Origin: Candidatus Latescibacterota bacterium
Lineage (GTDB): Bacteria > Latescibacterota > UBA2968 > UBA8231
Assembly: GCA_965242865.1 (NCBI GenBank)
Contig: CBDETK010000013.1
Span: 384,001 to 448,000 of the forward strand
Direction: 5' to 3'
Length of the DNA stretch: 64,000 nucleotides
The first letter of the stretch is position 1, and each line of letters opens with the position of its first letter. The notes beneath the pieces are model-generated. The model was not told the origin of the DNA and made no database searches. It was given only the letters and a program-made list of their open reading frames with translations. Below, piece after piece: positions 986-27,618 of this stretch. The translations under genes and the position numbers were made by a program.

Positions 986-3190
986 TTACGGCAGCTTGGT
1001 CGTCTTTTTCGCTTCCACCCGCCCGTCCATCTCGACGCGATAGATATACACGCCCGCGGCCACCGCCTTACCTGCCTCGTCGCGCCCATCCCATACAAAC
1101 CGATGGCTGCCCGCCCCCAGCGGCCCCTGCCACACCTGTCGCACCCGACGACCCAACACGTCATGTACCCGTAGCGACACCGCCGCCGCGTCCGTTGCCA
1201 AATCAAGGGGCAGCACCACCGCCGGATTGAACGGATTGGGATAGCTGTCGCCCAGCCGATATTGCGCCGGGCGTGCTGCCGCCGGCGTCTGCACGGCCGT
1301 CGCGGTTGAGGCCAGCGAACTCTTGAGGACATGCACACCGCCCAAGATCGGATCCAACACCACCAAATCGAGGTCGCCGTCGCTGTCCATATCCCCGGAC
1401 AGCACGGTTCTCCCATTGCCCGCCAGCCGATGCCGCTCCCCTTCTTCGGTAGGCTTAACGCTCCCGCCCCATTCGACGAACACGCCAAACCCCGAAGCGC
1501 GATCTCCGCCGACAAATACCCAATCGTCAATTCCATCGGCGTTGAGATCGCGTATCAGCACGGGCGAGCGACGCAACAGCCGATCATCATACAACACCTC
1601 GGCTTCAAGGCGGTCCCCGGCCCCCTTGCGCTGCAAGACGAGCCCCTTGCTCCCTTCGCGTAGATCGGAAGTGGACTCGGTGAGGAAATCCACCTGCCCG
1701 TCGCCATCAAAATCGCCCACCCCTAACAGCGTCGCCTCGTCATCAACTTCAAAAACCTCGCCTCGTTGCAACGCTTCAGGCTCGTTGCTTTGCAACGCCT
1801 TGTCCAAGGGAGACACAATCCACCCTTGCGCTAGATTGCGGATCGGCACCCAGAACACGTCAAGGAGCCCATTGCCGGTAAAGTCGCCGATGTGAATGGG
1901 CGCGTATTTTTCGGAATACGCCACCTCCGCGGACATCCACCCACCTGGTTCAAACTCCCAGACCGCTAACGTGCTAAAAAACTTCGCCGTACCCGCGATC
2001 TTTTCCTCTAAAGTGCCGTAAGCCCCAGCCCCCCCGACAAATAATTCGACCCGGCCGTCGCTATCCCAATCGGCCACACTATGAACCCAGCTATCGATCT
2101 GCGTGAGCACTTCGACTTGGAGGTCCGGGCCGATAGACCACACTTCGGTCTCAGGCTCTCGGTTGCTTCTCGAAAGGACGATTTCGGCTTGACCATCGCC
2201 GGTCAAATCGGCACCAAGCACCTTCAAGGTCACCCCTCTGGCGACTATTGCCACCTCCCCTCCTATGGCGTCCCCTTCCCCCCTCTCTGGGGCGGCTCCT
2301 TCCTCTATAACAGGCCCCCGTTCCAAGACCCCGCGCCCATCATTGAGGGCCATCAGCCAGCCCGATTTTGTCTTAGGAGGCCCATGTTTATTCAATGTTT
2401 TCATTTCCCAGAGGCCGAACAGGTCTAAGTCGCCATCGCCATCCAAGTCCGTCAACACGTTGCGCCCGTTCCGCCCGAGAAACCTGCTTTCACTTGTTTT
2501 CCCGATGCCTAGGGCAATCGGATAGAACACCGGCGGCGCAAAAAGCCCCGTCCCCGCAAAGCGAAAATACTCTACCAGCGGCGGGGAGAGTTCCCCTTGT
2601 AGCACCTCTTCCACGCCAGTCAACTCGATCCAGTCGATCTCAAACGCCTCCACTACCTCAGTATCCAAATCAGAACCCAGCACAAAACTGAGCCGAAGGT
2701 TTCTTAACAGGCCCTCCCAGCCGGCTTGACCCTCCAACGAGACCTCCACTTCCTGCCACTCGGTGGTATAGACTACTTCTTGGATGGGGAGTTCTCCTTC
2801 AAAGAAAAGACTAGAAATATCATGACCTGAAGCGTTGTCCCATTCCATCGAAAAATTACCCTCGGTCGGGCGGTCATGGACGGTGCGGCAGCGGATGCGG
2901 AGCCGGTCAAACAGACTCGAATCATACCCGATGGTCGAAGAAACCACTTCGACACTCGGCCGGGAGGGGTTGAAACTGTTGGTGAAGGCGGGATCGACCC
3001 GGATTCGCCACACGCCCTCGTCAACCTCGCCGGGAAACTGGTGAAATTCACGCGTACGTACCCCACCAATCGATAGATGAGATTCTTTGGCGGTCCACCC
3101 CTGAGTCGTCCCGTCGTCGAACTCCCACCGAATCGCCTCGGCGAGGTTGCTCCACAGCGCAAGCCCTACAACAGCAGCAAACTTCAGCAT
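986..3190 (-). CDS. Secreted FG-GAP/VCBS beta-propeller protein with N-terminal CBM-like domain and C-terminal FlgD-Ig/T9SS-like domain (paralog 1)
   Basis: Start refined to MLKFAAV (AAGGAG RBS); signal peptide ending AEA; repeated DxDGDG motifs; C-terminal LGDSYPNPFNP...WDGRD...GVYIYR. Confidence 0.9.
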   Translation of the reverse strand: MLKFAAVVGLALWSNLAEAIRWEFDDGTTQGWTAKESHLSIGGVRTREFHQFPGEVDEGVWRIRVDPAFTNSFNPSRPSVEVVSSTIGYDSSLFDRLRIRCRTVHDRPTEGNFSMEWDNASGHDISSLFFEGELPIQEVVYTTEWQEVEVSLEGQAGWEGLLRNLRLSFVLGSDLDTEVVEAFEIDWIELTGVEEVLQGELSPPLVEYFRFAGTGLFAPPVFYPIALGIGKTSESRFLGRNGRNVLTDLDGDGDLDLFGLWEMKTLNKHGPPKTKSGWLMALNDGRGVLERGPVIEEGAAPERGEGDAIGGEVAIVARGVTLKVLGADLTGDGQAEIVLSRSNREPETEVWSIGPDLQVEVLTQIDSWVHSVADWDSDGRVELFVGGAGAYGTLEEKIAGTAKFFSTLAVWEFEPGGWMSAEVAYSEKYAPIHIGDFTGNGLLDVFWVPIRNLAQGWIVSPLDKALQSNEPEALQRGEVFEVDDEATLLGVGDFDGDGQVDFLTESTSDLREGSKGLVLQRKGAGDRLEAEVLYDDRLLRRSPVLIRDLNADGIDDWVFVGGDRASGFGVFVEWGGSVKPTEEGERHRLAGNGRTVLSGDMDSDGDLDLVVLDPILGGVHVLKSSLASTATAVQTPAAARPAQYRLGDSYPNPFNPAVVLPLDLATDAAAVSLRVHDVLGRRVRQVWQGPLGAGSHRFVWDGRDEAGKAVAAGVYIYRVEMDGRVEAKKTTKLP

Positions 3191-3259
3191 GATAGCACAA
3201 CTCCTTTCCAACAGGTAACATTCCGCAGACTGCGCCCTATCCTCGTTCGGCCAATCCAC

Positions 3260-5482
3260 TTACGGCAGCTTCGTCGTCTTTTTCGCTTCCACCCGGCCGT
3301 CCATCTCGACGCGATAGATATACACGCCCGCGGCCACGGCCTTACCTGCCTCGTCGCGGCCATCCCAAGTAAAACGATGCTGACCTGCCCCCAGCGGCCC
3401 CTCCCACACCTGCCGCACCCGCCGACCCAACACATCATGCACTCGCAACGACACCGCCGCCGCGTCCTTAGCCAAATCAAGAGGAATCACCACCGCCGGA
3501 TTGAACGGATTGGGATAGCTGTCGCCGAGCGAATGTTGCGCCGGGCGTGCTGCCGCCGACGTCTGCACGGCTGTCGCGGTTGAGGCCAGCGAACTCTTGA
3601 GGACATGCACGCCGCCCAAGATCGGATCCAACACCACCAAATCGAGATCGCCGTCGCCATCCATGTCACCGGACAGCACGTATCGCCCACTGCCAGTCAG
3701 CCGATGCCGCTCCCCGTCTTGGGTCGGATTGATACTCCCTCCCCATTCGATAAATACCCCAAAGCCCGAAGCGCGATCTCCGCCGACAAATACCCAATCG
3801 TCAACCCCATCGGCGTTGAGATCACGCACCAGCACCGGCGAGCGACGCAACAGCCGATCGTCATATAGCACCTCGGCTTCGAGGCGGTCTCCGGCCCCCT
3901 TGCGCTGCAAGGCGATTCCCTTGCTTCCTTCGAGTAGATCGAAGGTGAACTCGGTGAGAAAATCCACCTGCCCATCGCCGTCAAAATCGCCTATCCTTAA
4001 CGGCCTTACCTCTTTATCTACTTCAAAGACCTCGTTGCTCTGCAACGCCTCAGGTTCGTTGCTTTGCAACGCCTTGTCTAAGGGCGTCACAATCCACCCT
4101 TCCGCCAGATTGCGGATCGGCAACCAGAACACATCGAGAATCCCATTGCCGGTAAAGTCGCCGATGTGAATGGGCGCGTATTTTTCGGAATACGCCACCT
4201 CCGCGGACATCCACTCACCCTGTTCAAACTCCCAGACCGCTAACGTGCTAAAAAACTTCGCTGAACCCTCGAGTATTTCCTTTAACGTGCCGTAAGACCC
4301 AGCCCCCCCGACAAATAATTCGACCCGGCCATCGCCATCCCAATCAGCCACACTATGAACCCAGCTATCGATCTGCGCGAGCACCTCCACTTGGAGGTCT
4401 GGGCCGATAGACCACACTTCGGTCTCAGGCTCCCGGTTACTTCTCGATAGGACGATTTCGGCTTGACCATCGCCGGTCAAATCAGCACCAAGCACATCTA
4501 AGACCGGAGTCCCTGAAGCGACTACTACCTCCCCTCCTACGGTGGCTGATTCCCCCCCCCCTGGGGCGGCTCCTTCCTCTATAACAGGCCCCCGTTCCAA
4601 GGCCCCGTGCCCGTCATTAAGGGCCATCAGCCAGCCCGCTTTCTCCTTATGAGCCCCATGCTTATTAGGTATTTTCATTGCCCAGAGGCCAAACAGGTCT
4701 AAGTCCCCATCGCCATCCAAGTCCGTCAACACGCTGTCATCTTCCTTCCCTATCCCTAGATACCTGTTTTGAGAATCTCCAATAGATACTTCCCCGATGC
4801 CCGGCGCAATCGGATAGAACACCGGCGGCGCAAAAAGCCCTGTCCCCGCAAAGCGAAAATACTCTACCAGCGGCGGGGGGAGTTCCCCCTGCAGCACTTC
4901 TTCCACGCCAGTCAACTCGATCCAGTCGATCTCAAACGCCATCACCACCTCAGTATCCAAATCAGAACCCAGCACAAAACTGAGCCGAAGGTTTCTTAAC
5001 AGGCCCTCCCAGCCGGCTTGACCCTCCAACGAGACCTCCACTTCCTGCCACTCGGTGGTATAGACTACTCGTTGGATGGGGACTAGTGCGCCTACGTCGT
5101 TACCAACCAAAATATGACCTAAAGCGTTGTCCCATTGCACGGAAAAAGTACCCTCGGTCGGTCGGTCATGGACGGTGCGGAAGCGGAGGCGAACCCGGTC
5201 GAACAGACTCGAATCATGCCCGATGGTCGAAGAAACCACTTCGACACTCGGCCAGGAGGGGTCGAAACTGTTGGCAACGGCGGGATCGACCCGAATCCGC
5301 CACACGCCCTCGTCAACCTCGCCGGGAAACTGGTGAAATTCACGCGTACCCCCTCCACCCATCGACACATAAGCTTCTTTGGCGGTCCACCCTTGCGTCG
5401 TCCCGTCGTCGAACTCCCACCGAATCGCCGTGGCGGGGATACCCCACAGCACAAACCATGCAACGGCAGCGAACTTCAACAT
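3260..5482 (-). CDS. Secreted FG-GAP/VCBS + FlgD-Ig/T9SS-like protein (paralog 2)
   Basis: Start refined to MLKFAAV at 5482; same architecture and closest to paralog 1. Confidence 0.9.
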   Translation of the reverse strand: MLKFAAVAWFVLWGIPATAIRWEFDDGTTQGWTAKEAYVSMGGGGTREFHQFPGEVDEGVWRIRVDPAVANSFDPSWPSVEVVSSTIGHDSSLFDRVRLRFRTVHDRPTEGTFSVQWDNALGHILVGNDVGALVPIQRVVYTTEWQEVEVSLEGQAGWEGLLRNLRLSFVLGSDLDTEVVMAFEIDWIELTGVEEVLQGELPPPLVEYFRFAGTGLFAPPVFYPIAPGIGEVSIGDSQNRYLGIGKEDDSVLTDLDGDGDLDLFGLWAMKIPNKHGAHKEKAGWLMALNDGHGALERGPVIEEGAAPGGGESATVGGEVVVASGTPVLDVLGADLTGDGQAEIVLSRSNREPETEVWSIGPDLQVEVLAQIDSWVHSVADWDGDGRVELFVGGAGSYGTLKEILEGSAKFFSTLAVWEFEQGEWMSAEVAYSEKYAPIHIGDFTGNGILDVFWLPIRNLAEGWIVTPLDKALQSNEPEALQSNEVFEVDKEVRPLRIGDFDGDGQVDFLTEFTFDLLEGSKGIALQRKGAGDRLEAEVLYDDRLLRRSPVLVRDLNADGVDDWVFVGGDRASGFGVFIEWGGSINPTQDGERHRLTGSGRYVLSGDMDGDGDLDLVVLDPILGGVHVLKSSLASTATAVQTSAAARPAQHSLGDSYPNPFNPAVVIPLDLAKDAAAVSLRVHDVLGRRVRQVWEGPLGAGQHRFTWDGRDEAGKAVAAGVYIYRVEMDGRVEAKKTTKLP

Positions 5483-5555
5483 GACATTACCGATCCTTTC
5501 CAACAGGTAACATTCCGACAGACAGCACCCTATTCGTGAAGTACGAAGGGGAAGG

Positions 5556-5590
5556 GGGGCCGGCTCAATCGCTCCGATCAAACCGGCCCC
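5556..5590 (-). terminator. Stem-loop between peptide gene 1 and the downstream propeller gene
   Basis: Minus strand GGGGCCGGTTTGATCG-gag-CGATTGAGCCGGCCCC pairs fully using G-U wobbles; no clear U-tract. Confidence 0.55.
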
Positions 5591-5647: not shown

Positions 5648-5938
5648 TCAAGCGCAGCAGTAGTTCCCCCCGCACCTTGTATTGCAGTTCGAGTCCAGCC
5701 AACAGTCCTGGCACTTATACGACCTTGCCCCGTTCGAGGCCTCGTCGCAACCTGCGCTGTACCCGAAACTCCTTGTCCACCTTCTTTCGTCGCAATCGCG
5801 ATTATCGGCAGCCGCTTCCTTGGCCCCGAGCAGGATGGTGATCCCCGTCAGGACGCTGATGACCCAACCGAGGGCCAAACCCTGCCGAGCCGGCGCCAAC
5901 CCGCTCGACGACGCGAAAAACTCCCGCAATTTCTGCAT
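5648..5938 (-). CDS. Secreted 8-Cys peptide precursor 1 (44-aa conserved signal/leader + 52-aa variable core)
   Basis: AGGAG RBS; leader nearly identical in four copies; hydrophobic stretch ending in A-x-A; 8 Cys in the core. Confidence 0.88.
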   Translation of the reverse strand: MQKLREFFASSSGLAPARQGLALGWVISVLTGITILLGAKEAAADNRDCDERRWTRSFGYSAGCDEASNGARSYKCQDCWLDSNCNTRCGGNYCCA

Positions 5939-6077: not shown

Positions 6078-6094
6078 AGCAAATTGCGTGCCAA
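6078..6094 (-). promoter_or_regulatory. Sigma-54 (-24/-12) promoter, copy 1
   Basis: TTGGCACGCAATTTGCT matches TGGCAC-N5-TTGCW with GG-N10-GC spacing. Confidence 0.88.
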
Positions 6095-6133
6095 AAAGCA
6101 GGGCATGCACAAAAAAATCCTTTAGGATTGCCC

Positions 6134-6146
6134 TAAAGGATTGAAA
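6134..6146 (-). promoter_or_regulatory. IHF-like site between enhancer and promoter; equivalent sites in the other three modules
   Basis: TTTCAATCCTTTA versus consensus WATCAANNNNTTR (1 mismatch), preceded by an A/T tract. Confidence 0.5.
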
Positions 6147-6211: not shown

Positions 6212-6289
6212 TTTACACGATTTTCCGTGGATTTTACACGATTTTCCGTGGATTTTACACGATTTTCCGTGGATTTATACGACTTTCCC
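6212..6289. repeat. 21-bp tandem repeat x3 plus a degenerate fourth; putative sigma-54 upstream activator sites, copy 1
   Basis: Unit TTTACACGATTTTCCGTGGAT contains the dyad CACG-N6-CGTG; lies ~120-195 bp upstream of the -24 box. Confidence 0.8.
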
Positions 6290-6343: not shown

Positions 6344-9300
6344 TTACTTGCTGGGTCGGCGCAACCCGTATTTCTGTATGCGGTAACGCAGCTTCTCCGG
6401 GCTCATGCCCAATAGTTTGGCCGCGCCCCGATCGCCATAGATCACCCAGTTGGTCGCATGGAGGGCCGCCACAAGCCGCTGCTTTTCATCATCGCCTTCG
6501 GCCAGCGCTGGCACTTCGTCCCCAGCCTCGGTTTGTCGTGCAGGCGGCGCGAGCGGCTTCCTTGCATCCGCGTCGCCGCCGGCTAGTTGCTCATCCGGCG
6601 GCAACGCCAAATCCTCTACTCGCAACACCCCGTCCTCGCACAGCAAGACCCCTCGGTGGAGCCGATGCGCCAACTCCCGGATGTTCCCCGGCCACGAGTG
6701 CGTCTGCAAGTGCTCGATCACCCCCTCGGCGATCGTCGGCATCGGCTGATTTATCTGGTCGGCAAACCACGCCACAAAATTCACGACCAAATCCGGTATA
6801 TCCTCGGGCCGCTTCCGCAGCGGTAGAACCTCTACCGTGAAGTTGTCCAGCCGATAAAACAGGTCTTGGCGGAACGTACCCGCCTGTACGGCCTGTTTCA
6901 GGTCGCGGTTGGTCGCGGCCACGACTCGCACATCCATGGGGACAGGCCGCTCCCCACCGACGCGGGTCAAGCTCTTCTGCTCTAAGACGTGCAGCAGCAC
7001 CTGCTGGGAGTTTAACGGCAAATCGCCGATCTCGTCCAAAAACAGGGTGCCGCGATGGGCCAGTTCAAAGCGGCCGCGTTGGCGAGTATTGGCGCCGGTA
7101 AAGGACCCTTTCTCGTGGCCGAACAACTCGCTCTCGATTAGGTTGGCGGGGATCGCTGCGCAATTGACTTGGATGAAGGGACGGTCGCGGCGGGGGCTGA
7201 GGTCGTGGACGCTCTGCGCCAGCAAGCTCTTGCCGGTGCCAGTCTCGCCCAGCACCAGCACGGTCATATTGGTCCCAGCGACCCGCTCAATCTGTCGCCT
7301 TATCGTTTGCATGTGCCGAGAGCGGCTCGGCACGACCGAGTTGGCAGACAGCAGGGTCTTTTCGAGGATGCGGGTGTGTTCGACTTGGGGGTCGGGCAGG
7401 ACGTGAACGGCCAAACTGACCACCTCGGACGACAGGCCATCCCGGTCCATGGCCTCCACCTCAAAGCAGTAGTCGCCCACCGGCAAAGTGTGATAGACCA
7501 CCGCATCGGCGGCCGTGAACGCGCTCCACTCTTTGGCCGGATCATGGCCTACCAAGCGATGGCGATAGCACAACTGCCGCGCCCCGCTGCGGAAACTAAT
7601 GCCTTGGAAATGAATGCGGATTTCGGGGATGTCCTCTGAGTAGGACACGGCTTCGGGCATAGTAAAAAGGCGACCGGCCTGCACCTCGCGGATCACCAAG
7701 CGCGGCGGCGTGTCCCCGGGCTGATAGGCCACCAACCCAGCCCGCGTCCCAAACCACAGCCGCCCCTGACGGTCGCACAATACGGCCTCGACGATGTTGC
7801 CCAGCACAGACGACCCCAAGCGGATGTTGCGGAACGTCTCGCCATCATAGCAGAGTACGCCCCCACCACTCGTCCCCAGCCAAACGCGCCCCGCCCGGTC
7901 GGCCGTCAGCCCCAAGATGCCATTGGCCATCAGCCCACTATCCTCCGTGGTAAAGTGGCGCACCTGACCCGCCGAGCGGTCGGCAATGAAAAGCCCCTTG
8001 GCCGTGCCCACCCACAAGACGTCTTGGTGTTCCCACAACACATTGACATAGACGATGGTCTCGGACTCGGCCATCTCCACCGGGCCAAACTGCTCGTCCT
8101 TGTACCAGTACAACGCCGGCACTCGACCGAAGAACCCAATCCAGAACACGCCGTTTTGGTCTTGCAGCAGGGCGCGGCACTCCTCGCCGCTCCACTCCTT
8201 AAAGGGGGTGAAGCGGCCAGCCTCGATCCAGCCGAAGTGGCCCTGGAACGTACCGACCCAGATGCGCCCTTGCCCATCTTCGCACAGTCCGGTAATCGCG
8301 TCGCCGTCGGTCTCGGCCGCCACGGCGATCGCCTGCGGCGTTTGCCCGGCCCACTGGTACACTTGGCCCTGTTCGCCCCCGCTCCAGACCTGCCCCTGTC
8401 CATCCACCATCAGCGCCGACACCGAGTCATCCCTAGTGAGCGGCCGGATGCGGCCTTCTTCCATACAGGCCATGCCGCCTATCGTGCCGATCCAGACCCG
8501 CCCGTCGCCGTCTTCTCCCAAGTGGCACACTTCGTGGTCGGGCAGGCCATCCGCTTCGGTGTACAGCCGCATGCTGACTGGATCGCAAAAAACCAACCCG
8601 CCGCCCCAAAGCCCAACCCAGATATTGCCCTCGCGATCCTCGTAGGTCAGGCGCGTATTGGAAAAGTCAAAGTCCAACAGGTGGGTTGCAAAGGGATGCC
8701 ACGTTTGCCCATCGTAGCAGACTACCCCCCGACGCGCCAGCCAGAGCCGGCCCTGCTCGTCCACCCGCACGTGCCGCACGCCCTGCTGCACCACTCGCTC
8801 GGCCTGATGCTCCACCTCAAGGCAGGCGAACTGCTCGGTGTGCGGATCGTAGCGGCCGATCAAGGCTTCGCTCCCCTCGTAGTGGAAGGCGATCCACAGA
8901 GAGCCGGACGGGTCTTGGGCAAATTTCCAAGGCCAGCGCACCGCCCGATCGCCCAGCTCCATGCGTCGGCCATCCAAACTGAGGACGCCTCGGTCCCACG
9001 TCGCCAGCCAAGTGGTGCCGGCCGCGTCTGTGACCCAATCGTACACCCGCCCCAACGGTTGGCCGTCAATGTGGGTTATGCTCCGGGTGCAGCGGCCTTG
9101 GGCAAACCACGCCACGCCCGCGCCGGTCAGCACCAACACCGACCCATCCGGCTGGGCTTGCAGCCCCACGATCTCATTGGACGGCAAGCCGTGCTCGGTG
9201 GTATGCAGCTCAAAGCCGCGCCCGTCGTACGCGGCCAACCCGCCGCCCAACGTGCCGAACAGCAGCCGGTCGTTGTCGTCCTCGGCAATGGCCATGACCG

Positions 9301-9496
9301 TCAGGTTGGGCAGGCCATCGGCGAGGGCAAACGTATCGAACCGAGCGCTGTCGAACCGGCTGACGCCGCCGTCGGCCGTGGCAACCCAGAGGAACCCTTG
9401 GCGGTCTTGGTAGAGGTCTTCAATGTGCATCCCGCAAAGCCCATCAAAGACTGTGTAGTGATACCCCTGCACGTGCTCAAAGGATAGGGCGCTCAT
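6344..9496 (-). CDS. Sigma-54-dependent activator (bEBP) with N-terminal Reg_prop beta-propellers and Y_Y_Y-type domain, AAA+ domain and Fis-type HTH
   Basis: Repeats such as DGLP...I.ED..G.LW.GT.GG; Walker A GETGTGKS; [15 protein letters not shown]; LFLDEIG; FRQDLFYRL; WPGNIREL; C-terminal [11 protein letters not shown]. Confidence 0.93.
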
Positions 9497-9592
9497 CGTC
9501 GGCCTTTCGGCGATTGGGAGGGAGGTCTTTCCCGGAAGTGGGAAGGAGAAGGAACGCCTAAGATACGACAACCGCCGCCCGAAAACTACCCG

Positions 9593-13323: not shown

Positions 13324-13373
13324 AGTATAATTCCTTTCCAACAGTAGCGTCTCTGGGGAGTTGAGAGGAGAGG

Positions 13374-13468: not shown

Positions 13469-13759
13469 TCAGGGGCAGGAAGTGGAGGAGCACCAGCAAG
13501 CTATTCTAGAATAGCTGCAATCCGGGGCCCTTTTGTGGGTGCAGTACCGGTAGCCCTCGTCCGTATCCCCCTCTGCACAGTTGGCACTCGTACTGCAGGT
13601 GGTCCAAGTGCGAGGGCACTGGCTGTCGGCTTTCGCTTCCTTGGCCCCGAGCAGGACGGTGATCCCCGTCAGGACGCTGATGACCCAACCGAGGGCCAAA
13701 CCCTGCCGAGCCGGTGCCAACCCGCTCGACGACGCGAAAAACTCCCGCAATTTCTGCAT
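13469..13759 (-). CDS. Secreted 8-Cys peptide precursor 2
   Basis: Same leader; core spacing C-x6-C-x5-C-x11-C-x7-C-x6-C-x-C-x4-C. Confidence 0.88.
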   Translation of the reverse strand: MQKLREFFASSSGLAPARQGLALGWVISVLTGITVLLGAKEAKADSQCPRTWTTCSTSANCAEGDTDEGYRYCTHKRAPDCSYSRIACWCSSTSCP

Positions 13760-13898: not shown

Positions 13899-13915
13899 AG
13901 CAAATTGCGTGCCAA
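13899..13915 (-). promoter_or_regulatory. Sigma-54 promoter, copy 2
   Basis: TTGGCACGCAATTTGCT. Confidence 0.88.
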
Positions 13916-14032: not shown

Positions 14033-14111
14033 TTTACACGATTTTCCGTGGATTCTACACGATTTTCCGTGGACTGTACACGATTTTCCGTGGATTCTAC
14101 GCGACTTTCCC
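14033..14111. repeat. 21-bp tandem repeat array (putative UAS), copy 2
   Basis: TACACGATTTTCCGTGGA core x3 plus a degenerate fourth. Confidence 0.8.
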
Positions 14112-18792: not shown

Positions 18793-21018
18793 TTACGGCA
18801 GCTTGGTCGTCTTTTTCGCTTCCACCCGGCCTTCGATTTCGACCCGATAGATGTACACCCCAGCGGCCACGGCCCTACCTTCCTCGTCGCGACCATCCCA
18901 TACCAACCGATGCTGACCCGCCCCCAGCGGCCTGTCCCACACCTGACGCACCCGACGACCTAACACGTCATGTACCGCCAGCGACACTTCCGCCGCGTCC
19001 GTCGCCAAATCAAGGGGAATCACCACCGCCGGATTGAACGGGTTGGGATAGCTGTTGCCGAGCCGGTATTGCGCCGGTTGCGCATCCGCTAGCATCTGCA
19101 CGGCCGTCGCCTGATCCGCGACCAAATTCTCGAGCACATACACCCCGTCGGCCGTATGCCCCTCCTCCGAAAGATGGCTCAACACGACCAAGTCCAGATC
19201 GCCATCGCCGTCCACATCTCCAGCCAGCACTTCGCTGCCATTGCCGACCAACCGATGCCGCTCCACTTCCTTCGCCGGATTAAGGCCCCCGCCCCACTCA
19301 ACGAACACCCCAAAGCCTGACGCCCGGTCGCCGCCGATGAACACCCAATCGTCCGCGCCATCGGCATTCAAGTCGCGCACCACCACCGGCGAGCGCAGCC
19401 ACAGCCGCTCGTCATACAGCACCGCCGATTCGACCCCTCCGCCGACTCCCGGTCGCTGCACCACTAGCCCCTTGACGCCTTCGCTTTGGACCCGTATGAA
19501 CGCCGTGAGCAAGTCCACCTGCCCATCGCCATCAAAATCGCCCACTCGCAAAACAGGGCCTGCCAGATAAACTTCATCAGACTCCGAGTATGATGTATCC
19601 ACCTCAAATTCCACATCGCCTACCTGTAAAACAGGCTTATACGCCTCGAACTCAACCAAATCGCCCCCCTGAAGATCGTTACCCAAACCAGCCACCACCC
19701 GCGGAGCTGCCTGTCCGGCGATGGGTTCCCACAGCACCTCCAGCACCCCATCGCCGGTAAAGTCGCCGATCTGGGAGGCCACATAGTTTTTGGAGACCGC
19801 CACCTCAGAGGACGACCACGCGCCGTTCTCTACATCCCAAACCTCCAACGTGCTGCCCTCAAGCGTCGTCTCTCCGACAAATAACTCAACATCCCCATCG
19901 CCATCCCAATCGGCCAAGTCCCGCAGCCAGCGAGCGGGGATTTCCGCGAGTACCTCGACTTGGAGTTCCGGCCCCACCGACCAAACCGCGGTCGCTAATT
20001 CACTCGTTCTAGAGAGCACGATCTCGTCGTGGCCATCGCCGGTCAAATCGCCGGCCAGCACCGCTAGGAGCACCCCTTCGATCGGCTCATCCGGGCCGGC
20101 CTCCACCGTGCTAACAACCTGCTCGGCGCGCACGGTCTTAAAGGCTCCCCTACCATCATTGAGGGCCATCACCCAGCCCGTTTTGGGGGTTGACTCGCTT
20201 ACTTTATAGTCCCAAACAGCGAACAGGTCTAAGTCGCCGTCTCCCTCCAAGTCCGTCAAGACGCCGACGTGATCTCTATGCGATCTTCCCCCGATGCCCG
20301 GGGTAATCGGATAGAAAACCGGCGGCGCAAAGTGCTTGGCCCCCTCAAAGCGGAAATACTCTACGTAAGGAGGGGCTAGTTCCCCCTGTAAGAGCTCTTC
20401 AACCCCGGTCAACTCGATCCAGTCGATCTCAAACTCTCTAACCACTTCGCTCACGGCCAAGGGAGGCTGAGTTATATCAGGTGCCTGCAAGACAAAACCC
20501 AGCCGAATATCCCGCAGTAGCCCCTCCCACATTTTCTCGCCTTGGCCGACGAGGGCGAACTCCACCTCCTGCCACTCGGTGGTGTAAACGAAGTCCCGTT
20601 GTCCCGGGAGCCTAAACCTGCCTCCGGCATCCCAACTTGGATTTGCCCCTGGATTTGTAAGGTTATACTCGTTCGTCCAAGTCAGCCAAAAAGAGCCTAA
20701 CGTAGGACTGCGATGGACCGTGCGAACCCGGGCTCGGACCCGATCAAAAAGCCCCGAATCGTAGCCTATGGTCGAAGAAACCACTTCGACTTTCGGCGCA
20801 GGATAGGCACTCGCGGGCACGGAGGGCAAGACATCGATCCGCCACACGCCGTCTTCAACCACCCCCGGGAATAAGTAAAACTCACCCGTCCCACCCCACG
20901 CAAGCGCTCTTTTGGCAGCCCACCCTTGCGTCGTCCCATCGTCGAACTCCCACCGAATCGCCGCGGCGGGACCGCTCCACAGCACAATACCGACGACAAC
21001 GGCCAATAGCAGCAGCAT
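18793..21018 (-). CDS. Secreted FG-GAP/VCBS + FlgD-Ig/T9SS-like protein (paralog 6, 'GAKHF' subtype)
   Basis: Same architecture; closest to paralog 3. Confidence 0.9.
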   Translation of the reverse strand: MLLLLAVVVGIVLWSGPAAAIRWEFDDGTTQGWAAKRALAWGGTGEFYLFPGVVEDGVWRIDVLPSVPASAYPAPKVEVVSSTIGYDSGLFDRVRARVRTVHRSPTLGSFWLTWTNEYNLTNPGANPSWDAGGRFRLPGQRDFVYTTEWQEVEFALVGQGEKMWEGLLRDIRLGFVLQAPDITQPPLAVSEVVREFEIDWIELTGVEELLQGELAPPYVEYFRFEGAKHFAPPVFYPITPGIGGRSHRDHVGVLTDLEGDGDLDLFAVWDYKVSESTPKTGWVMALNDGRGAFKTVRAEQVVSTVEAGPDEPIEGVLLAVLAGDLTGDGHDEIVLSRTSELATAVWSVGPELQVEVLAEIPARWLRDLADWDGDGDVELFVGETTLEGSTLEVWDVENGAWSSSEVAVSKNYVASQIGDFTGDGVLEVLWEPIAGQAAPRVVAGLGNDLQGGDLVEFEAYKPVLQVGDVEFEVDTSYSESDEVYLAGPVLRVGDFDGDGQVDLLTAFIRVQSEGVKGLVVQRPGVGGGVESAVLYDERLWLRSPVVVRDLNADGADDWVFIGGDRASGFGVFVEWGGGLNPAKEVERHRLVGNGSEVLAGDVDGDGDLDLVVLSHLSEEGHTADGVYVLENLVADQATAVQMLADAQPAQYRLGNSYPNPFNPAVVIPLDLATDAAEVSLAVHDVLGRRVRQVWDRPLGAGQHRLVWDGRDEEGRAVAAGVYIYRVEIEGRVEAKKTTKLP

Positions 21019-21164: not shown

Positions 21165-21443
21165 TCAGGGGCAGGAGGAAACGCAGTCGCAGATTGTATG
21201 AGTCTTTCTGCAATACGAGTCCCAGTAACTGGTGCATTCCCGGTACGGCGTTCTGGAGTTATAGTCCGCGCAGTCGGCGGAGTAGCCACAAGTGGTCTTG
21301 TCTTTGGGGCAAGCACCGGCTTCCTTGGCCCCGAGCAGGATGGTGATCCCCGTGAGAGCACTGATGACCCAACCGAGGGCCAAACCCTGCCGAGCCGGTG
21401 CCAACCCGCTCGACGACGCGAAAAACTCCCTCAAGTTCTGCAT
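21165..21443 (-). CDS. Secreted 8-Cys peptide precursor 3
   Basis: Same leader; core spacing C-x6-C-x5-C-x11-C-x7-C-x6-C-x-C-x3-C. Confidence 0.88.
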   Translation of the reverse strand: MQNLREFFASSSGLAPARQGLALGWVISALTGITILLGAKEAGACPKDKTTCGYSADCADYNSRTPYRECTSYWDSYCRKTHTICDCVSSCP

Positions 21444-21582: not shown

Positions 21583-21599
21583 AGCAAATTGCGTGCCAA
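21583..21599 (-). promoter_or_regulatory. Sigma-54 promoter, copy 3
   Basis: TTGGCACGCAATTTGCT. Confidence 0.88.
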
Positions 21600-21716: not shown

Positions 21717-21795
21717 TTTACACGATTTTCCGTGGATTCTACACGATTTTCCGTGGACTGTACACGATTTTCCGTGGATTCTACGCGACTTTCCC
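21717..21795. repeat. 21-bp tandem repeat array (putative UAS), copy 3
   Basis: Same sequence as copy 2. Confidence 0.8.
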
Positions 21796-22096: not shown

Positions 22097-24250
22097 TTAC
22101 GGCAGCTTGGTCGTCTTTTTCGCTTCCACCCGGCCTTCGATTTCGACGCGATAGATATACACCCCAGCGGCCACGTCTTTACCCGCCTCGTCGCGCCCAT
22201 CCCATACCAACCGATGGCTGCCCGCCCCCAGCGGCCCCTCCCACACCTGCCGCACCCGCCGACCCAACACGTCATGTACCCGTAGCGACACCGCCATCGC
22301 GTCCGTCGCCAAATCAAGGGGAATCACCACCGCCGGATTGAACGGGTTGGGATAGCTGTCGCCCAGCCGGTACTGCGCCGGCCGCGCATCCAGCGGCGTC
22401 AGCACAGCTGTCGCGGTCGAGGCCAGCGAACTCTTGAGAACATGCACACCGCCCAAGATCGGATCCAATACCACCAAATCCTCATCGCCGTCGCCATCCA
22501 TATCCCCGGACAGCACGTGGGTCGCACTGCCCGTCAGCCGGTGACGCTCCCCGTCTTGGGTCGGCTTGACACTCCCGCCCCACTCGACAAACACCCCAAA
22601 CCCCGACGCACGGTTGCCGCCGATAAACACCCAGTCGTCGATCCCATCGGCGTTGAGATCGCGCATCAGCACCGACGAGCGCAGAAACAGCCGATCATCA
22701 TACAGCACCGCCGATTCTACGCCGCCACCGGCGCTCCTGCTCTGCAAGGCCAAGCCCTTGAGACCTTCAATTTGATCCCTTATGAACCTCGTGAGTAAAT
22801 CCACCTGCCCATCGCCATCAAAATCGCCCACCTCTAACAGATCCTTCCACAACAGCCGGTTCCCTTCGTCGAATTCAAAGGACTCGCCAGTCTGCAACTC
22901 GTCGTCCAAAGGTCCCACAATCCACGTGTGCGACCGCCCGGCGATTGGTCCCCACAACGCATTGAGAACCCCATCGCCGGTAAAGTCGCCAATCCGACTA
23001 ACCACATGACGTTCGGCCACGGCCACCTCCTCGGCGGTCCACCCGCCCTGTTCGACCTCCCAGACCGCTAAAATGCTCCCTTCCAACGAAGACGATCCGA
23101 CAAATAATTCGGCCTTGCCATCGCCGTCCCAATCCGCCACATCCCCAAGCCAGCGATCCTCGATCTGCACGAGCACCTCGACTTGGAGGTCCGCCCCGAT
23201 AGACCACACTTCTACTACCTGCCCAGCATTGCTTACATACAGCGCGATTTCGTCTCGACCATCGCCGGTCAAGTCCGCACCCAGCATCTCTAAGGCGACC
23301 AAGGAGGCGGTCGTCCTGCCCGTTGCCGCATCGGTACTCGACTGCCCTGTGGCCGCTACTTCCTCTATGCGCTTGAGTTCCAAGACCCCGTATCCATCGT
23401 TGAGGGCCATCAGCCAGCCCACTTTATCCCCCGGCTGATTCTTTTGCTTTTGCCGAGCTTCCCAGACAGCAGACAGGTCTAAGTCGCCATCGCCATCCAA
23501 GTCCGTCAAGACGCCGCTGTGATCTCTATAAGACCTTCCCCCGATGCCCGGGGCAATCGGATAGAACACCGGCGGCGCAAAAAGCCCAACTCCATCCAAG
23601 CTAAGGAACTCTACGGGCGGCGGCGGCCGTTCTCCTTGTAATAGCTCTTCCACGCCGGTCAACTCGATCCAGTCGATCTCAAACCACCCAATCACCGCGT
23701 CTTGATCCTCGATGTCCAAGTTAAAACTGAGCTGAATATCTTTTAACAGGCCCTCCCATATCGTCTCGTCTGAACCCGCCAAGAAAAGCTCCACTTCCTG
23801 CCACTCGGTGGTATAGACTACCTCTTGGGGGAAGAAGAGCTTAAACCGGCTTCCAGACGGTGGCTCGGCTGGGTCCCAACCGGACGACAGGGCGTTGTGC
23901 TCGTTGGTCCACTCCATTGAAAACGTACCGATCGTCGGGCGGTCATGGACGGTGCGGAACCGGATGCGGACCCGGTCAAACAGGCTCGAATCGTACCCGA
24001 TAGTCGAAGAAATCACTTCGACACTCTGGCCAGAATAATTGCCTTTGACGACCGCGGGATCGACCGCGATCCGCCACACGCCGCCTTCAACCACCCCGGG
24101 AAACTGGTTAAATTCATACCAACTACCCCATACACCAGCTTCTTTGGCGGACCACCCTTGCGTCGTCCCATCGTCGAACTCCCACCGAATCGCCGCGGCG
24201 GGACCGTTCCATAGCGCAATACCGACGACAACGGCGAATAGCAGCAGCAT
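22097..24250 (-). CDS. Secreted FG-GAP/VCBS + FlgD-Ig/T9SS-like protein (paralog 7, mosaic)
   Basis: Same architecture. Confidence 0.9.
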   Translation of the reverse strand: MLLLFAVVVGIALWNGPAAAIRWEFDDGTTQGWSAKEAGVWGSWYEFNQFPGVVEGGVWRIAVDPAVVKGNYSGQSVEVISSTIGYDSSLFDRVRIRFRTVHDRPTIGTFSMEWTNEHNALSSGWDPAEPPSGSRFKLFFPQEVVYTTEWQEVELFLAGSDETIWEGLLKDIQLSFNLDIEDQDAVIGWFEIDWIELTGVEELLQGERPPPPVEFLSLDGVGLFAPPVFYPIAPGIGGRSYRDHSGVLTDLDGDGDLDLSAVWEARQKQKNQPGDKVGWLMALNDGYGVLELKRIEEVAATGQSSTDAATGRTTASLVALEMLGADLTGDGRDEIALYVSNAGQVVEVWSIGADLQVEVLVQIEDRWLGDVADWDGDGKAELFVGSSSLEGSILAVWEVEQGGWTAEEVAVAERHVVSRIGDFTGDGVLNALWGPIAGRSHTWIVGPLDDELQTGESFEFDEGNRLLWKDLLEVGDFDGDGQVDLLTRFIRDQIEGLKGLALQSRSAGGGVESAVLYDDRLFLRSSVLMRDLNADGIDDWVFIGGNRASGFGVFVEWGGSVKPTQDGERHRLTGSATHVLSGDMDGDGDEDLVVLDPILGGVHVLKSSLASTATAVLTPLDARPAQYRLGDSYPNPFNPAVVIPLDLATDAMAVSLRVHDVLGRRVRQVWEGPLGAGSHRLVWDGRDEAGKDVAAGVYIYRVEIEGRVEAKKTTKLP

Positions 24251-24288
24251 AGCCTATCTCCTTGCAATAGGCGAAAAAGAAGGTCCGC

Positions 24289-26433
24289 TTACGGCAGCTT
24301 GGTCGTCTTTTTCGCTTCCACCTGTCCGTCCATCTCGACGCGATAGATATACACGCCCGCGGCCACCGCCTTACCTGCCTCGTCGCGACCATCCCATACA
24401 AACCGATGGCTACCCGCCCTCAGCGGCCCCTCCCACACCTGCCGCACCCGACGACCCAACACGTCATGCACTCGCAACGACACCACCGCGTCCGTCGCCA
24501 AATCGAGGGGAATCACCACCGCCGGATTGAACGGGTTGGGATAGCTGTCGCCCAGCCGGTATTGCACCGGGTGCGCATCCGCTGGCGTCTGCACGACCGT
24601 CGCGGTCGAAGCCAGCGAACTCTTGAGGACATGCACACCGCCCAAGATCGGATCCAATACCACCAAATCCTCATCGCCATCGCCATCCATATCCCCAGAC
24701 AGCACGTGGGTCGCACTGCCCGTCAGCCGATGCCGCTCCCCTTCTTCGGTCGGCTTGACACTCCCGCCCCATTCGACGAACACCCCAAACCCCGAAGCGC
24801 GGTCTCCGCCGATAAACACCCAGTCGTCGATCCCATCGGCGTTGAGATCGCGCATCAGCACCGGCGAGCGTCGAAACAGCCGATCATCATACAACACCGC
24901 TTCTGCGCCGCCAGTACTCTGGCTCCGCCAGACGAGCCCCTTGCTCCCTTCAAATTCATCGCGTGTGAGCTCGGTGAGTACATCCACCTGTCCATCGCCA
25001 TCAAAATCGCCCACCCCTAACAGCGGCTTCCAGGCCTCATTGCCGACCCCTAACAGCGGCTTCCAAGCCTCGAATTCAAAGATCTCGTTTCGCTGAAACT
25101 CGTCGCCCAAGGCTTCCACACTCCACGTGTTCGCCTGCCCGATCTTCGGTATCCACACCACGTCGAGCACCCCATCGCCGGTAACGTCGCCAACCCGATG
25201 GGACACATGGTGTTGAGCCGAGGCCACCTCCTCGGCCGTCCACACACCTTGTTCCACATCCCAGACCTCTAACGCGGTGCGCCCCTTGACGAATAATTCG
25301 GCCTGACCATCGCCATCCCAATCCGCGGCATCCGTGATCCATCGATCTGCGATCTGCACGAGCACCTTGACTTGGAGGTCCGCCCCGATAGACCACACTT
25401 CGATTACCCTGCCCTCCCCGTCGCTTGCATACAGCGCGATTTCGTCGCGACCATTGCCGGTCAAGTCCGCACCAAGCACCCCTAAGGACACCCCGTAGAT
25501 GGTTATACTTCCGGTTGCCGCGTCGGTACTCGTCCCCCCTGCGGTCGCTACTTCCTCTACGCGCCCCCGTTCCAAGGCCCCGTGCCCGTCATTGAGAGCC
25601 ATCAGCCAGCCCACTTTAGCCCCCATCTTCCCCTTCCCACTTTGACGATACTCCCAGATGGCGAACAGATCTAAATCGCCATCGCCCTCCAAGTCCGTCA
25701 AGATACCCTCCTGCGCTCCTGCAAAGCCGTAGCCGGTCCCAATGCCCGGTGCAATCGGATAGAATATCGGCGGCGCAAAAAGCCCCGCCGCATCCCAGCG
25801 AAGGTACTCTACGGGGGGCGGTGACCGTTCCCCCTGTAGCAACTCTTCCACGCCGGTCAACTCGATCCAATCGATCTCAAACCACTCAACCACATCGGAC
25901 GCCGATTCAACTTCCGAACGATCGAGTGAAAAACTGAGCCGAATATCTTTTAACAGGCCCTCCCATCTCTTCTCGTCGCGACCTGCCAAGACAAGCACCT
26001 CTTCCTGCCACTCGGTGGTATAGACTATATCTTGGGCGAAAATTGTAAACGCGAAATCCCGACCTGACGGCAGGGCGTTGTGCTCACTGGTCCAAGCGAC
26101 CGAAAAATTACCGATTGTAGGGCGGTGATGGACGGTGCGGCAGCGGATGCGAACGTGGTCAAACAGACCCGAATCGTATCCGATGGTCGGCGAAATCAAT
26201 TCGACTGCCGGCTCGGAGTAGAACCCCTTGGTGACGGCCGGATCGACCGCGATCCGCCACACGCTGTCTTCAACCATCCCCGGAAACTGGTGAAATTCAC
26301 GCGAACCACCCCATATAGCAGCTTCTTTGGCAGACCACCCTTGCGTCGTCCCATCGTCGAACTCCCACTTGATCGCCGTGGCGGGATCGTCCCACAGCAC
26401 CACAGCGACGACAACGGCGAATAGCAACATCAT
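24289..26433 (-). CDS. Secreted FG-GAP/VCBS + FlgD-Ig/T9SS-like protein (paralog 8)
   Basis: Same architecture; shares the EAWKPLLGVG duplication with paralog 5. Confidence 0.9.
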   Translation of the reverse strand: MMLLFAVVVAVVLWDDPATAIKWEFDDGTTQGWSAKEAAIWGGSREFHQFPGMVEDSVWRIAVDPAVTKGFYSEPAVELISPTIGYDSGLFDHVRIRCRTVHHRPTIGNFSVAWTSEHNALPSGRDFAFTIFAQDIVYTTEWQEEVLVLAGRDEKRWEGLLKDIRLSFSLDRSEVESASDVVEWFEIDWIELTGVEELLQGERSPPPVEYLRWDAAGLFAPPIFYPIAPGIGTGYGFAGAQEGILTDLEGDGDLDLFAIWEYRQSGKGKMGAKVGWLMALNDGHGALERGRVEEVATAGGTSTDAATGSITIYGVSLGVLGADLTGNGRDEIALYASDGEGRVIEVWSIGADLQVKVLVQIADRWITDAADWDGDGQAELFVKGRTALEVWDVEQGVWTAEEVASAQHHVSHRVGDVTGDGVLDVVWIPKIGQANTWSVEALGDEFQRNEIFEFEAWKPLLGVGNEAWKPLLGVGDFDGDGQVDVLTELTRDEFEGSKGLVWRSQSTGGAEAVLYDDRLFRRSPVLMRDLNADGIDDWVFIGGDRASGFGVFVEWGGSVKPTEEGERHRLTGSATHVLSGDMDGDGDEDLVVLDPILGGVHVLKSSLASTATVVQTPADAHPVQYRLGDSYPNPFNPAVVIPLDLATDAVVSLRVHDVLGRRVRQVWEGPLRAGSHRFVWDGRDEAGKAVAAGVYIYRVEMDGQVEAKKTTKLP

Positions 26434-26595: not shown

Positions 26596-26877
26596 TTAAG
26601 CCGCGCAGTAACAAGGGTATCTCCTAAAGCTGCAGTCAGGGTACTCTCGAACTGGGCAGCAACTGAACGGCTTGTTCGCGTCTTTAGACGCGCAATAAGC
26701 ACTGTACTCGCAGTCTTCATAAGTGCGGTCACTGCACTCGTCGCCTGCCTCGCCTTCCTTGGCCCCGAGCAGGACGGTGATCCCCGTGAGGACGCTGATG
26801 ACCCAGCCCAGTGCCAAACCCTGCCGAGCCGGCACCAACCCGCTCGACGACGCGAAAAACTCCCGCAAGTTCTGCAT
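26596..26877 (-). CDS. Secreted 8-Cys peptide precursor 4
   Basis: Same leader; core spacing C-x7-C-x5-C-x10-CC-x7-C-x6-C-x-C. Confidence 0.88.
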   Translation of the reverse strand: MQNLREFFASSSGLVPARQGLALGWVISVLTGITVLLGAKEGEAGDECSDRTYEDCEYSAYCASKDANKPFSCCPVREYPDCSFRRYPCYCAA

Positions 26878-27016: not shown

Positions 27017-27033
27017 AGCAAATTGCGTGCCAA
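27017..27033 (-). promoter_or_regulatory. Sigma-54 promoter, copy 4
   Basis: TTGGCACGCAATTTGCT. Confidence 0.88.
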
Positions 27034-27151: not shown

Positions 27152-27230
27152 TTTACACGATTTTCCGTGGATTATACACGACTTTCCGTGGACTGTACAC
27201 GATTTTCCGTGGGTTCTACGCGACTTTCCC
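27152..27230. repeat. 21-bp tandem repeat array (putative UAS), copy 4
   Basis: TACACGA(T/C)TTTCCGTGG x3 plus a degenerate fourth. Confidence 0.8.
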
Positions 27231-27277
27231 CTTGGGCTGTCGCGCCGCCAAGATAGGTGATCAAGGGCTGGAGTACG

Positions 27278-27618
27278 CCTTGGCCGGATTAAGGCCCCCG
27301 CCCCACTCGACAAACACCCCAAAGCCTGACGCCCGGTCGCCGCCGATGAACACCCAATCGTCCGCGCCATCGGCATTCAAGTCGCGCACCACTACTGGCG
27401 ACCGCCACCTCAGAGGACGACCACGCGCCGTTCTCTACATCCCAGACCTCTAACGTGCTGCCCGCAAACGTGGTCTTTCCGACAAATAGCTCGACCGCGC
27501 CGTCGCCATCCCAATCGGCCAAGTCCCGCAGAAAGCGATCCGGGAGTTCCGCGAGCACCTCGATTTGGAGTTCCGGCCCCACCGACCAAACCGCGGTCGC
27601 TAATTCACTCGTTCTAGC
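27278..27618 (-). pseudogene. Internally deleted remnant of a ninth FG-GAP paralog ('GAKHF' subtype)
   Basis: Two non-contiguous fragments (RTSELATAVWSVGPELQIEV...SSEVAVA and VVVRDLNADGADDWVF...GLNPAK) nearly identical to paralogs 3/6; no start and no C-terminal domain. Confidence 0.85.

Follow-up and report, generated by a model that had tools for sequence, protein, structure and literature searches.

What does a bacterium gain from a series of small genes that begin almost identically, diverge sharply in their second halves and are each followed by genes for large secreted proteins? The question is raised by an array on the minus strand of a 64,000-nt stretch (C13:384001-448000, hereafter the window) from a Candidatus Latescibacterota genome (GCA_965242865.1), in which the window lies on a 5.6-Mb contig (C13) of a 6.0-Mb assembly with a bin contamination of 6.84%. 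Between positions 986 and 27622 we found four units of one common build. Along the direction of transcription, each has three activator sites with a 21-bp period, an AT-rich stretch with a palindrome, a -24/-12 promoter element, a gene of 92–96 codons, a hairpin, and one to three genes of 701–773 codons; genes for an activator and a DUF4159 protein sit between units 1 and 2 (Table 1). We propose, with about an even chance of being right, that the array is part of a conserved sigma-54-switched system of this Latescibacterota lineage, in which exported disulfide-rich small proteins are each bound in the variable cleft of a cognate carrier, a protein with a carbohydrate-binding-module (CBM)-like domain and a propeller that is borne by the type IX secretion system (T9SS).

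An earlier note, made from the sequence of the window, had described four units composed of sites, sigma-54 promoter, leader plus 8-Cys core, hairpin and one to three propeller genes, with a sigma-54 activator gene embedded. All of these parts were recovered at the same positions, and the domains of the activator, encoded at 6344-9571, were identified by Pfam. Two points had to be corrected. The array does not start at 986, since three more peptide units and five more FG-GAP propeller genes are directly adjacent upstream of the window, bringing this array (array 1) to 7 peptides and 13 propeller genes; and the segment 27278-27622 is not intergenic spacer but what is left of an FG-GAP gene. At 2.27 Mb there is also a lone peptide gene, preceded by a promoter of its own.

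The products of the four small genes in the window, P0001–P0004, are almost invariant over their first 44 residues and divergent in their cores, each of which contains 8 Cys. At the DNA level, identity among the genome's seven units is ~0.9 from -80 to +130 relative to the ATG and drops to 0.3–0.5 exactly at codon 44, and the flanks of the units are ~93% identical. When leader codons were compared in all pairs, 89 synonymous differences were counted against 50 non-synonymous ones, so that the leader is kept by selection and not by copying alone. Recognisable in it are an invariant S-G and a stretch reading P-R-x-G-L-x3-W, together with a hydrophobic segment; immediately ahead of the Cys-rich core lies a small-x-small site. 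Across 28 diverse members of the family the only residues that are invariant after the initial Met are L4, S12 and G13, with F7, S10, L21 and W25 nearly so. A small-x-small site before the first Cys was counted in 232 of 233 cases, a crude figure with a loose criterion that carries little weight.

A profile of the four peptides matched 165 of 175 candidates at E <= 0.01. Among the 120 matches listed, a single one carries a name, "hypothetical". A relative whose name is given is a Candidatus Latescibacterota metagenome-assembled genome. Close profile matches occur in 26 of the 168 genomes of the phylum set, including 20 of the 30 from the window's genus, and a related genome holds up to 20 leader matches. 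A broader profile extends the count to 37 of 168 genomes, adding two further families, and yields 126 cluster representatives at E <= 0.001 among 1.84 billion proteins, most of them 70–140 aa long. Pfam and NCBIfam scans of 14 peptides (4 from the window and 10 distant) gave nothing above cut-off, the best match in the distant set being AtDEF-like (18.3 bits, cut-off 25), and no names were found for the distant members (10 clusters). Cores can be sorted into a handful of classes, which are conserved from genome to genome. The same leader also begins 15 longer proteins in 10 regions. All 11 of the long forms that were inspected carry one to three Cys modules of the peptide classes, short acidic linkers and, at the end, a T9SS sorting tail, which in one of them scores 29.7 bits with TIGR04183 (cut-off 23). 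The small peptides themselves have no outer-membrane export tail.

Each small open reading frame (ORF) precedes one to three genes whose products, 701–773 aa in length, have Pfam matches to FG-GAP_3 (54–73 bits) and FlgD_ig. These large proteins are composed of a short signal, a beta-sandwich of the CBM kind, an FG-GAP propeller and a C-terminal T9SS type A sorting domain. The tail had been annotated earlier as FlgD-Ig; the FlgD_ig match is real, and the proper identity is the sorting domain, as TIGR04183 scores 25.3, 25.2 and 26.0 bits in three propeller proteins with a cut-off of 23. No Pfam family was found for the N-terminal domain, for which the best PDB profile match was 4xuo (E = 0.28). 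Its model (predicted local distance difference test, pLDDT, 84) aligns with CBM28 1uww at Z 11.9 (root-mean-square deviation 2.8, 143 residues aligned) and with CBM15, CBM22 and CBM27 at Z 10–11, and the modelled fold is a beta-sandwich of the CBM4/22/27/28 kind; this genome has 33 matches to the CBM-like domain family. The propeller was modelled at a mean pLDDT of 78.4 with an all-beta region at residues 222–595, and its Foldseek matches to ITFG2, integrin alpha and BBS propellers are generic fold matches. Within the propeller, Pfam detected FG-GAP repeats only and no catalytic family. In a search for T9SS translocon and sortase components that covered PorU and SprA, both were found to be encoded in the genome (PorU, NF033707, 624 bits against a cut-off of 420; SprA, TIGR04189 over cut-off, 482 + 114 bits).

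Evidence that peptide and propeller are partners comes from their joint inheritance and from a structural model. In 13 genomes, 34 of 37 small peptides directly precede an FG-GAP gene. When cores and propellers were clustered separately, the class of the peptide agreed with that of the next propeller in 34 of 34 cases; for instance, the 14 cores of class 1 all have a class-1 propeller behind them, and the 13 of class 5 all have one of class 2 or 3. Mantel correlations of the core were 0.44 with the N-terminal domain and 0.52 with the propeller, values that none of 2000 permutations reached, and 0.06 with the sorting tail. We modelled the P0004 core in complex with its downstream propeller protein, minus signal and tail, using our own alignments and three controls. 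The complex score was 0.78 (runs 0.78, 0.01 and 0.82) and that of the best control 0.00. In the calibration of the tool, 58 of 80 solved complexes reached the 0.78 mark, as did 2 of 110 mismatched pairs; with our own alignments as input, these counts apply only roughly here. The three runs share at least 2% of contacts, with partner pLDDT of at least 35. The modelled peptide has the CBM-like domain on one side and the top face of the propeller on the other, and it touches blades all round. At the 63 predicted interface residues the majority residue has a frequency of 0.43, compared with 0.76 at the other 522; within loops the figures are 0.45 and 0.74, and within strands 0.38 and 0.79. In the model, the predicted pocket is thus the most variable part of the propeller protein. 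The class agreement, a complex model that passes its controls and the variable predicted pocket all support the diversified repertoire of peptides and partners that had been suggested from the window. Of the three roles then offered for it, small and large subunit or ligand and receptor are favoured, and toxin and immunity protein has no direct support.

To study the wider setting of the genes, we retrieved 20 stretches of 12 related genomes. Of these genomes, 8 have an activator and peptide/propeller units followed by a fixed block encoding a CxxC protein, an A24 peptidase, two ResA-like thioredoxins, a tetratricopeptide repeat (TPR) protein, a GT1-transglutaminase, a GT2 glycosyltransferase and a DUF4159 protein. 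The CxxC protein is membrane-anchored, has no match in Pfam or PDB, and ends in the motif G-I-T-G-A-T or G-I-S-G-A-T. The A24 peptidase (385 aa) scores 36.8 bits with PF01478, and 30.7 bits in this genome, against a cut-off of 26.5; the motifs D...IPN and G/P-G-D-A-K-L, which are catalytic in this family, are readable in the sequences. The thioredoxins match MauD weakly (31.6 and 45.7 bits, cut-off 188.6), and in the GT1 gene a GT1-like domain is fused to a Transglut_core domain. With regard to the C-terminal motif of the CxxC protein, the accessible part of PMC8238504 describes [S/T]GA[S/T] within the FMN_bind domain as a motif for flavinylation by ApbE.

A second array of ~55 kb in this genome (array 2, C13:3149146-3205137), built from the same parts, also contains this block, with an activator and a promoter of its own at the head; its propeller proteins are ~32% identical to those of array 1, and its peptides have 6 Cys and a diverged leader. 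Here the order is activator, sigma-54 promoter, A24 peptidase, CxxC protein, two thioredoxins, 6-Cys peptide, five propeller genes, DUF4159, GT1-transglutaminase and GT2. Beyond these come more groups of promoter, peptide and propeller genes, and a single T9SS-tailed protein of 290 aa with two modules. In 18 peptide loci from other genera and families, the association takes a simpler form. A24 peptidase and/or thioredoxin/CxxC genes lie directly beside the peptide in 14 of the 18, and GT2, GT1-transglutaminase, TPR and DUF4159 genes in none of them. Propeller genes stand beside the peptide in two further short loci from two genera. The expectation that leader homologues elsewhere would be linked to FG-GAP genes was therefore borne out in part: such linkage is confined to three genera of one family, and outside these the leader is linked to the peptidase/thioredoxin block. 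On this pattern, the old and stable unit is the peptide with the A24 peptidase and the redox set; judging from gene content, the propeller partners and glycosyltransferase genes are later additions in one family. A gene for a MacB_PCD/FtsX permease lies near the peptide in 5 of the 18 loci, in propeller-free settings (e.g. L072:5154-7649), and its product is a possible alternative exit from the periplasm in those lineages.

Based on these observations, the proposed system would work as follows. The sigma-54 switch would turn on the exported small proteins, and the leader would carry each peptide across the inner membrane. The A24 peptidase may cleave at the S-G motif and signal peptidase at the small-x-small site, releasing the core, in which the thioredoxin set would form or shuffle disulfides. 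The folded core would then lodge, in the periplasm, in the cleft that the CBM-like domain forms with the top face of the cognate FG-GAP propeller, and the pair would exit through the T9SS using the tail of the propeller protein, ending on or off the cell surface. Duplication of pairs and divergence at their interface would give a repertoire of matched surfaces, which most likely bind something outside the cell.

Several points weigh against this proposal. Cleavage sites, disulfides, secretion and the non-covalent ride through the T9SS are all predicted steps. In the same 14 cases, the upstream, non-cognate propeller correlates with the core almost as well as the downstream one (rho 0.39 and 0.49), so that shared descent of array segments explains part of the signal. 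The complex run that scored 0.01 is one in which the fold of the partner was uncertain. FG-GAP genes outnumber peptides in array 1, 13 to 7, and 5 of 10 peptide-negative genomes of the genus still carry members of the propeller family. Only 1 of the 18 distant loci has flanking propeller genes, and because the peptide occurs without a nearby FG-GAP gene in other genera and families, its primary role cannot depend on the propeller. Finally, the block of array 1 is damaged in this genome. A deletion of ~2.3 kb joins the CxxC gene to the TPR gene, with loss of the peptidase and both thioredoxins: the first ~141 aa and last ~50 aa of the truncated product (p196, no Pfam family) match two ORFs that lie 2.3 kb apart in relatives, and the intervening stretch of the relatives holds the flavinylation-type C-terminal motif, the A24 peptidase and the two thioredoxins. 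The GT1/transglutaminase gene of array 1 is likewise split into two overlapping pieces. The remnants adjoin the units at 2-939 and beyond. The statement that the array contains no peptidase and no modifying enzyme is accordingly true of 986-27618 and not of the system, as relatives and array 2 have a dedicated peptidase along with redox and glycosyltransferase genes.

Peptides and propellers could instead be non-touching products of one regulon, with class agreement that arises only from duplication of whole units. The upstream control, the unequal gene numbers, the lineages with peptides alone and the failed complex run are all what this explanation would predict. We nonetheless consider it unlikely. 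Two of the three complex runs reached 0.78 and 0.82 with controls at 0.00, the predicted pocket coincides with the variable patches, also within secondary-structure classes, and the sorting tail missing from the small peptides is present in the fused forms.

A second explanation does accept contact between the two proteins and assigns them other roles. The small protein would be a periplasmic plug or keeper, that is an inhibitor or pro-peptide acting in trans in the manner of an immunity protein. It would cover the working face of the propeller protein up to export and be shed afterwards, leaving the propeller/CBM protein as the effector, an enzyme or an adhesin. Propeller enzymes and integrins bind ligands at the propeller top face, and it is this face that the modelled peptide covers while abutting the CBM-like domain. 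Peptide-first gene order and matched classes fit a plug as well as they fit our proposal. We regard it as improbable, because the propeller has no catalytic Pfam family and its fold matches are generic, because Cys modules of these classes also occur joined to sorting tails and are hence exported themselves, and because peptides occur without propellers in distant lineages.

The leader bears on the remaining alternatives. Cargo of the T9SS has to pass the inner membrane first and end up soluble; since some of this cargo begins with the leader, we take the leader to be an export signal, with the small-x-small site before the Cys-rich part as the likely signal-peptidase site. An export signal alone does not explain the long conserved N-terminal region with its invariant S-G; co-inheritance of this motif with a GxGD peptidase makes it a likely target of the A24 enzyme. 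The residues before the hydrophobic segment are R-Q in most members, R-E in array 2 and R-R in a minority. A Tat signal was considered and ruled out by the R-Q of most leaders and the R-E of the deep paralogues.

A leader that is conserved far more than its core is also what would be expected if the small genes encoded precursors of ribosomally synthesised and post-translationally modified peptides (RiPPs). The leader would then guide cytoplasmic tailoring by the GT2, the GT1-transglutaminase and the TPR protein before removal by a protease, and the arrays of this genus do include GT2, a GT1-like/Transglut_core fusion and a TPR protein. This is very improbable in our view, chiefly because the tailoring-type genes do not travel with the peptide, being missing from every distant locus. 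In addition, the leader has a hydrophobic, membrane-type segment and a small-x-small site and heads T9SS cargo; no radical-SAM, lanthipeptide, cyclodehydratase or peptidase-ABC genes were seen among the ORFs of the window, and no RiPP family in Pfam or NCBIfam matched the peptides.

The co-inherited A24 peptidase raises the alternative that the small proteins are pilin-like subunits, whose class III leader would be removed at S-G so that the hydrophobic helix could drive assembly of a filament with a Cys-rich head. As in prepilin peptidase systems, a dedicated A24 (GxGD) peptidase is encoded beside small proteins with an invariant Gly, a short segment and a hydrophobic helix, and the pilin genes of several bacteria are sigma-54 dependent. 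The likeness ends there. Five residues past the invariant Gly, most of the 28 diverse members have Arg or Lys and none has the Glu of pilins; behind the helix comes a signal-peptidase-type site; the substrates are rich in Cys, and the same leader heads cargo with T9SS tails that must become soluble. The N_methyl family (PF07963) has no match in the arrays or on the main chromosome, and the main chromosome encodes no T2SSE ATPase. Among single-contig relatives, 4 of 5 lack any T2SSE ATPase and 5 of 5 have A24 genes inside their arrays. We thus rejected a pilus on the absence of assembly ATPases and give this explanation next to no weight; from gene content, the A24 peptidase appears to have no pilus machinery to serve and nothing else obvious to do. 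The sole T2SSE ATPase gene of the assembly and its sole three N_methyl ORFs lie together on a 41-kb contig (C1:26570-29874), which, given the bin contamination, may not belong to the same organism.

That the array is an assembly artefact stacking strain variants is barely credible: the near-identical unit flanks and the short-read contigs of four runs, which break throughout the array with alternative joints, would allow it, but the window lies within a 5.6-Mb contig, a dozen other genomes, many assembled as single contigs, have arrays of the same build with differing unit numbers and orders, and the units differ in core and propeller class, unlike allelic variants. The short contigs of these runs (two studies) cover all 30 bins and break within repeats, so that unit order is neither confirmed nor refuted by them.

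Under the proposal of a carried peptide, the exit of the untailed peptides follows most simply from the company they keep. The propeller proteins and the long Cys-module proteins resemble T9SS type A cargo in passing TIGR04183, in a genome that encodes PorU and SprA; the small peptides differ from such cargo in having no tail. Since cores are either fused to a sorting tail or encoded beside a tailed propeller, a ride on the partner would be the simplest way out. We know of no precedent for an untailed protein riding non-covalently on T9SS cargo. A more far-reaching version, which we offer tentatively and consider rather doubtful, is that the loci define a new export and maturation route, in which a GxGD peptidase and a private thiol-redox set act on non-pilin disulfide-rich proteins with a two-site leader; in one lineage, surface delivery would occur by non-covalent docking into tailed, polymorphic propeller carriers, a self-encoded bacterial counterpart of ligand-on-integrin pairs. 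A further possibility is that the strongly conserved N-terminal fragment of the leader, after cleavage at the membrane, feeds back on the cytoplasmic Reg_prop activator.

Control of the units by sigma-54 is indicated by several features. Five matches to TGGCAC-N5-TTGCW occur in the window (0.05 expected), and four of the five precede the four peptide genes. Each of the four promoters has three copies of the 18-nt core of the 21-bp repeat, 12 in all, with 0.03 expected. The same promoter layout is found in relatives and in array 2, where the tandem sites are inverted repeats whose palindromes vary by genome (CCACG..CGTGG, ATACG..CGTAT, CCACA..TGTGG). Half-sites that differ between genomes and stay complementary fit a site that co-evolves with its own activator. 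The activator (1075 aa) scores 233.8 bits with Sigma54_activat and 25.5 bits with HTH_8, has a readable GSFTGA loop and no visible membrane segment. A gene for sigma-54 itself, rpoN, lies ~30 kb from the array at ~56942-58408 on the plus strand (Sigma54_DBD, 201 bits, match at C13:441926-442399) and presumably serves it. From promoter elements, activator domains and rpoN, we read the array as a set of sigma-54-dependent operons with a bacterial enhancer-binding protein. The public runs that contain the stretch are DNA, labelled sponge metagenome, with no RNA run among them, which is evidence neither way on expression.

In all four units the palindrome TCCTTTAGG-N5-CCTAAAGGA, followed by T7, is located ~20–60 bp upstream of the -24 element, and it recurs with few changes in most of 25 promoters from relatives and array 2. 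It resembles a terminator hairpin, yet its place with respect to the promoter is fixed; possible roles are as a protein site or as an insulator that blocks read-through. The hairpins 3′ of the peptide genes are strong and lack a T run, with z = -1.95, -1.90 and -5.43 in three of four folded stretches; the fourth, shortened by a neighbouring ORF call, gave z = +0.56. The fifth TGGCAC-N5-TTGCT match, at 41263-41278 (-), is just upstream of an ECF-type sigma-70 family gene (40558-41220) and is unrelated to the array.

The system has partial likenesses to others. In methylamine dehydrogenase, a small disulfide-rich subunit sits on a seven-bladed propeller subunit, and the thioredoxin-like MauD is among the maturation genes. 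Here too, a small multi-disulfide protein, a propeller partner and ResA/MauD-like thiol oxidoreductases, the latter by weak MauD matches, occur together. In contrast to that enzyme, the cores are hypervariable and lack conserved cofactor-forming residues, no MauG- or MauE-type genes were seen, and the propeller is of the FG-GAP type with a CBM-like domain and a secretion tail; the system is not a member of that family. Integrin alpha offers a second likeness, since in the complex model the top face of an FG-GAP propeller is occupied by a small Cys-rich ligand; unlike in integrins, one bacterium encodes both partners side by side and there is no beta subunit. The corresponding ligands in that comparison are disintegrins, small cysteine-rich integrin binders according to the accessible part of PMC6116119. 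Conotoxins and nodule cysteine-rich peptides share the combination of a constant export signal with a sharply diverging Cys-rich core, but the cores described here do not vary freely and fall into few classes that are conserved across genomes, each tied to a partner protein.

The earlier view that no named system matches has held up. Full-text literature searches, which covered main texts, found no paper on such a system; a search on Latescibacterota and type IX secretion returned 0 papers, and the accessible part of PMC12993501 makes no mention of such a system. The components are familiar; no description of their combination and no family model for the peptides were found. If the proposal is true, it would give prepilin-type peptidases a new job in bacteria without type IV filament machinery and might provide the first case of tail-less cargo that leaves by the T9SS on a partner. 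It would also provide a natural library of matched small-protein/propeller interfaces, to which one array alone contributes at least 7 peptides and 13 propellers, and matched pairs could serve protein engineering as compact disulfide-stabilised binder and scaffold pairs. The organisms are uncultured and, by the labels of the DNA runs, sponge-associated, which makes a diversified surface repertoire a candidate for recognition of host or neighbours. Should binding fail, the leader family would still be an unnamed module with tight linkage to an A24 peptidase and thioredoxins.

Table 1. Features of the array and its upstream border, in window coordinates.
Feature	Position	Strand	Basis or remark
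TPR protein gene, 3′ part	2..544	-	TPR_12 and other TPR families; extends upstream of the window; 5′-truncated relative to 401-aa relatives (78-86% identical)
Truncated gene, membrane-anchored CxxC protein (p196)	349..939	-	~2.3-kb deletion, out-of-frame fusion to TPR gene
CBM-like/FG-GAP propeller/T9SS-tail protein, class 1	986..3259	-	Pfam, TIGR04183, paralogue alignment; likely true start at the Met near 3190, by the alignment
CBM-like/FG-GAP propeller/T9SS-tail protein, class 1	3260..5581	-	ORF, class clustering; likely true start near 5482
Small protein P0001, 44-aa leader and 8-Cys core of class 1	5648..5938	-	Alignment, clustering
Sigma-54 -24/-12 promoter element, TGGCACGCAATTTGCT	6078..6093	-	Motif match
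Palindrome TCCTTTAGG-N5-CCTAAAGGA and T run, between activator sites and promoter	6111..6140	-	
Three tandem activator-type sites, 21-bp period	6214..6273	-	Repeat-core count
Sigma-54 activator: Reg_prop propellers, Y_Y_Y, AAA+, HTH_8	6344..9571	-	Pfam
DUF4159 protein, co-amplified with units in both arrays	9593..10930	-	Pfam
CBM-like/FG-GAP/T9SS-tail protein, class 5	11098..13341	-	Pfam, TIGR04183, clustering
Small protein P0002, leader and 8-Cys core of class 3	13469..13759	-	Alignment, clustering
Sigma-54 promoter element	13899..13914	-	Motif match
Three tandem activator-type sites	14035..14094	-	Repeat-core count
CBM-like/FG-GAP/T9SS-tail protein, the one modelled: beta-sandwich 20-195, propeller 222-595, tail 624-701	14413..16518	-	
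CBM-like/FG-GAP/T9SS-tail protein	16557..18698	-	
CBM-like/FG-GAP/T9SS-tail protein, class 5	18793..21018	-	Pfam, clustering
Small protein P0003, leader and 8-Cys core of class 4	21165..21443	-	Alignment, clustering
Sigma-54 promoter element	21583..21598	-	Motif match
Three tandem activator-type sites	21719..21778	-	Repeat-core count
CBM-like/FG-GAP/T9SS-tail protein	22097..24250	-	
CBM-like/FG-GAP/T9SS-tail protein, class 3; propeller chain of the complex model	24289..26433	-	
Small protein P0004, leader and 8-Cys core of class 5; peptide of the complex model	26596..26877	-	
Sigma-54 promoter element	27017..27032	-	Motif match
Three tandem activator-type sites, two with one mismatch	27154..27213	-	Repeat-core count
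Two-piece remnant of FG-GAP gene at array edge	27278..27622	-	98.7% identity to 12108-12334, 93% to 11574-11700

Two further loci lie near array 1 on the same contig. About 40 kb past the end of the window (C13:488964-497537), three propeller genes and a DUF4159 gene occur with sigma-54-type promoters, and no leader peptide was detected there. Just past the upstream end of the array (C13:359447-365161) are two Ser/Thr-kinase-like ORFs with near-identical N-termini and a PP2C phosphatase gene.

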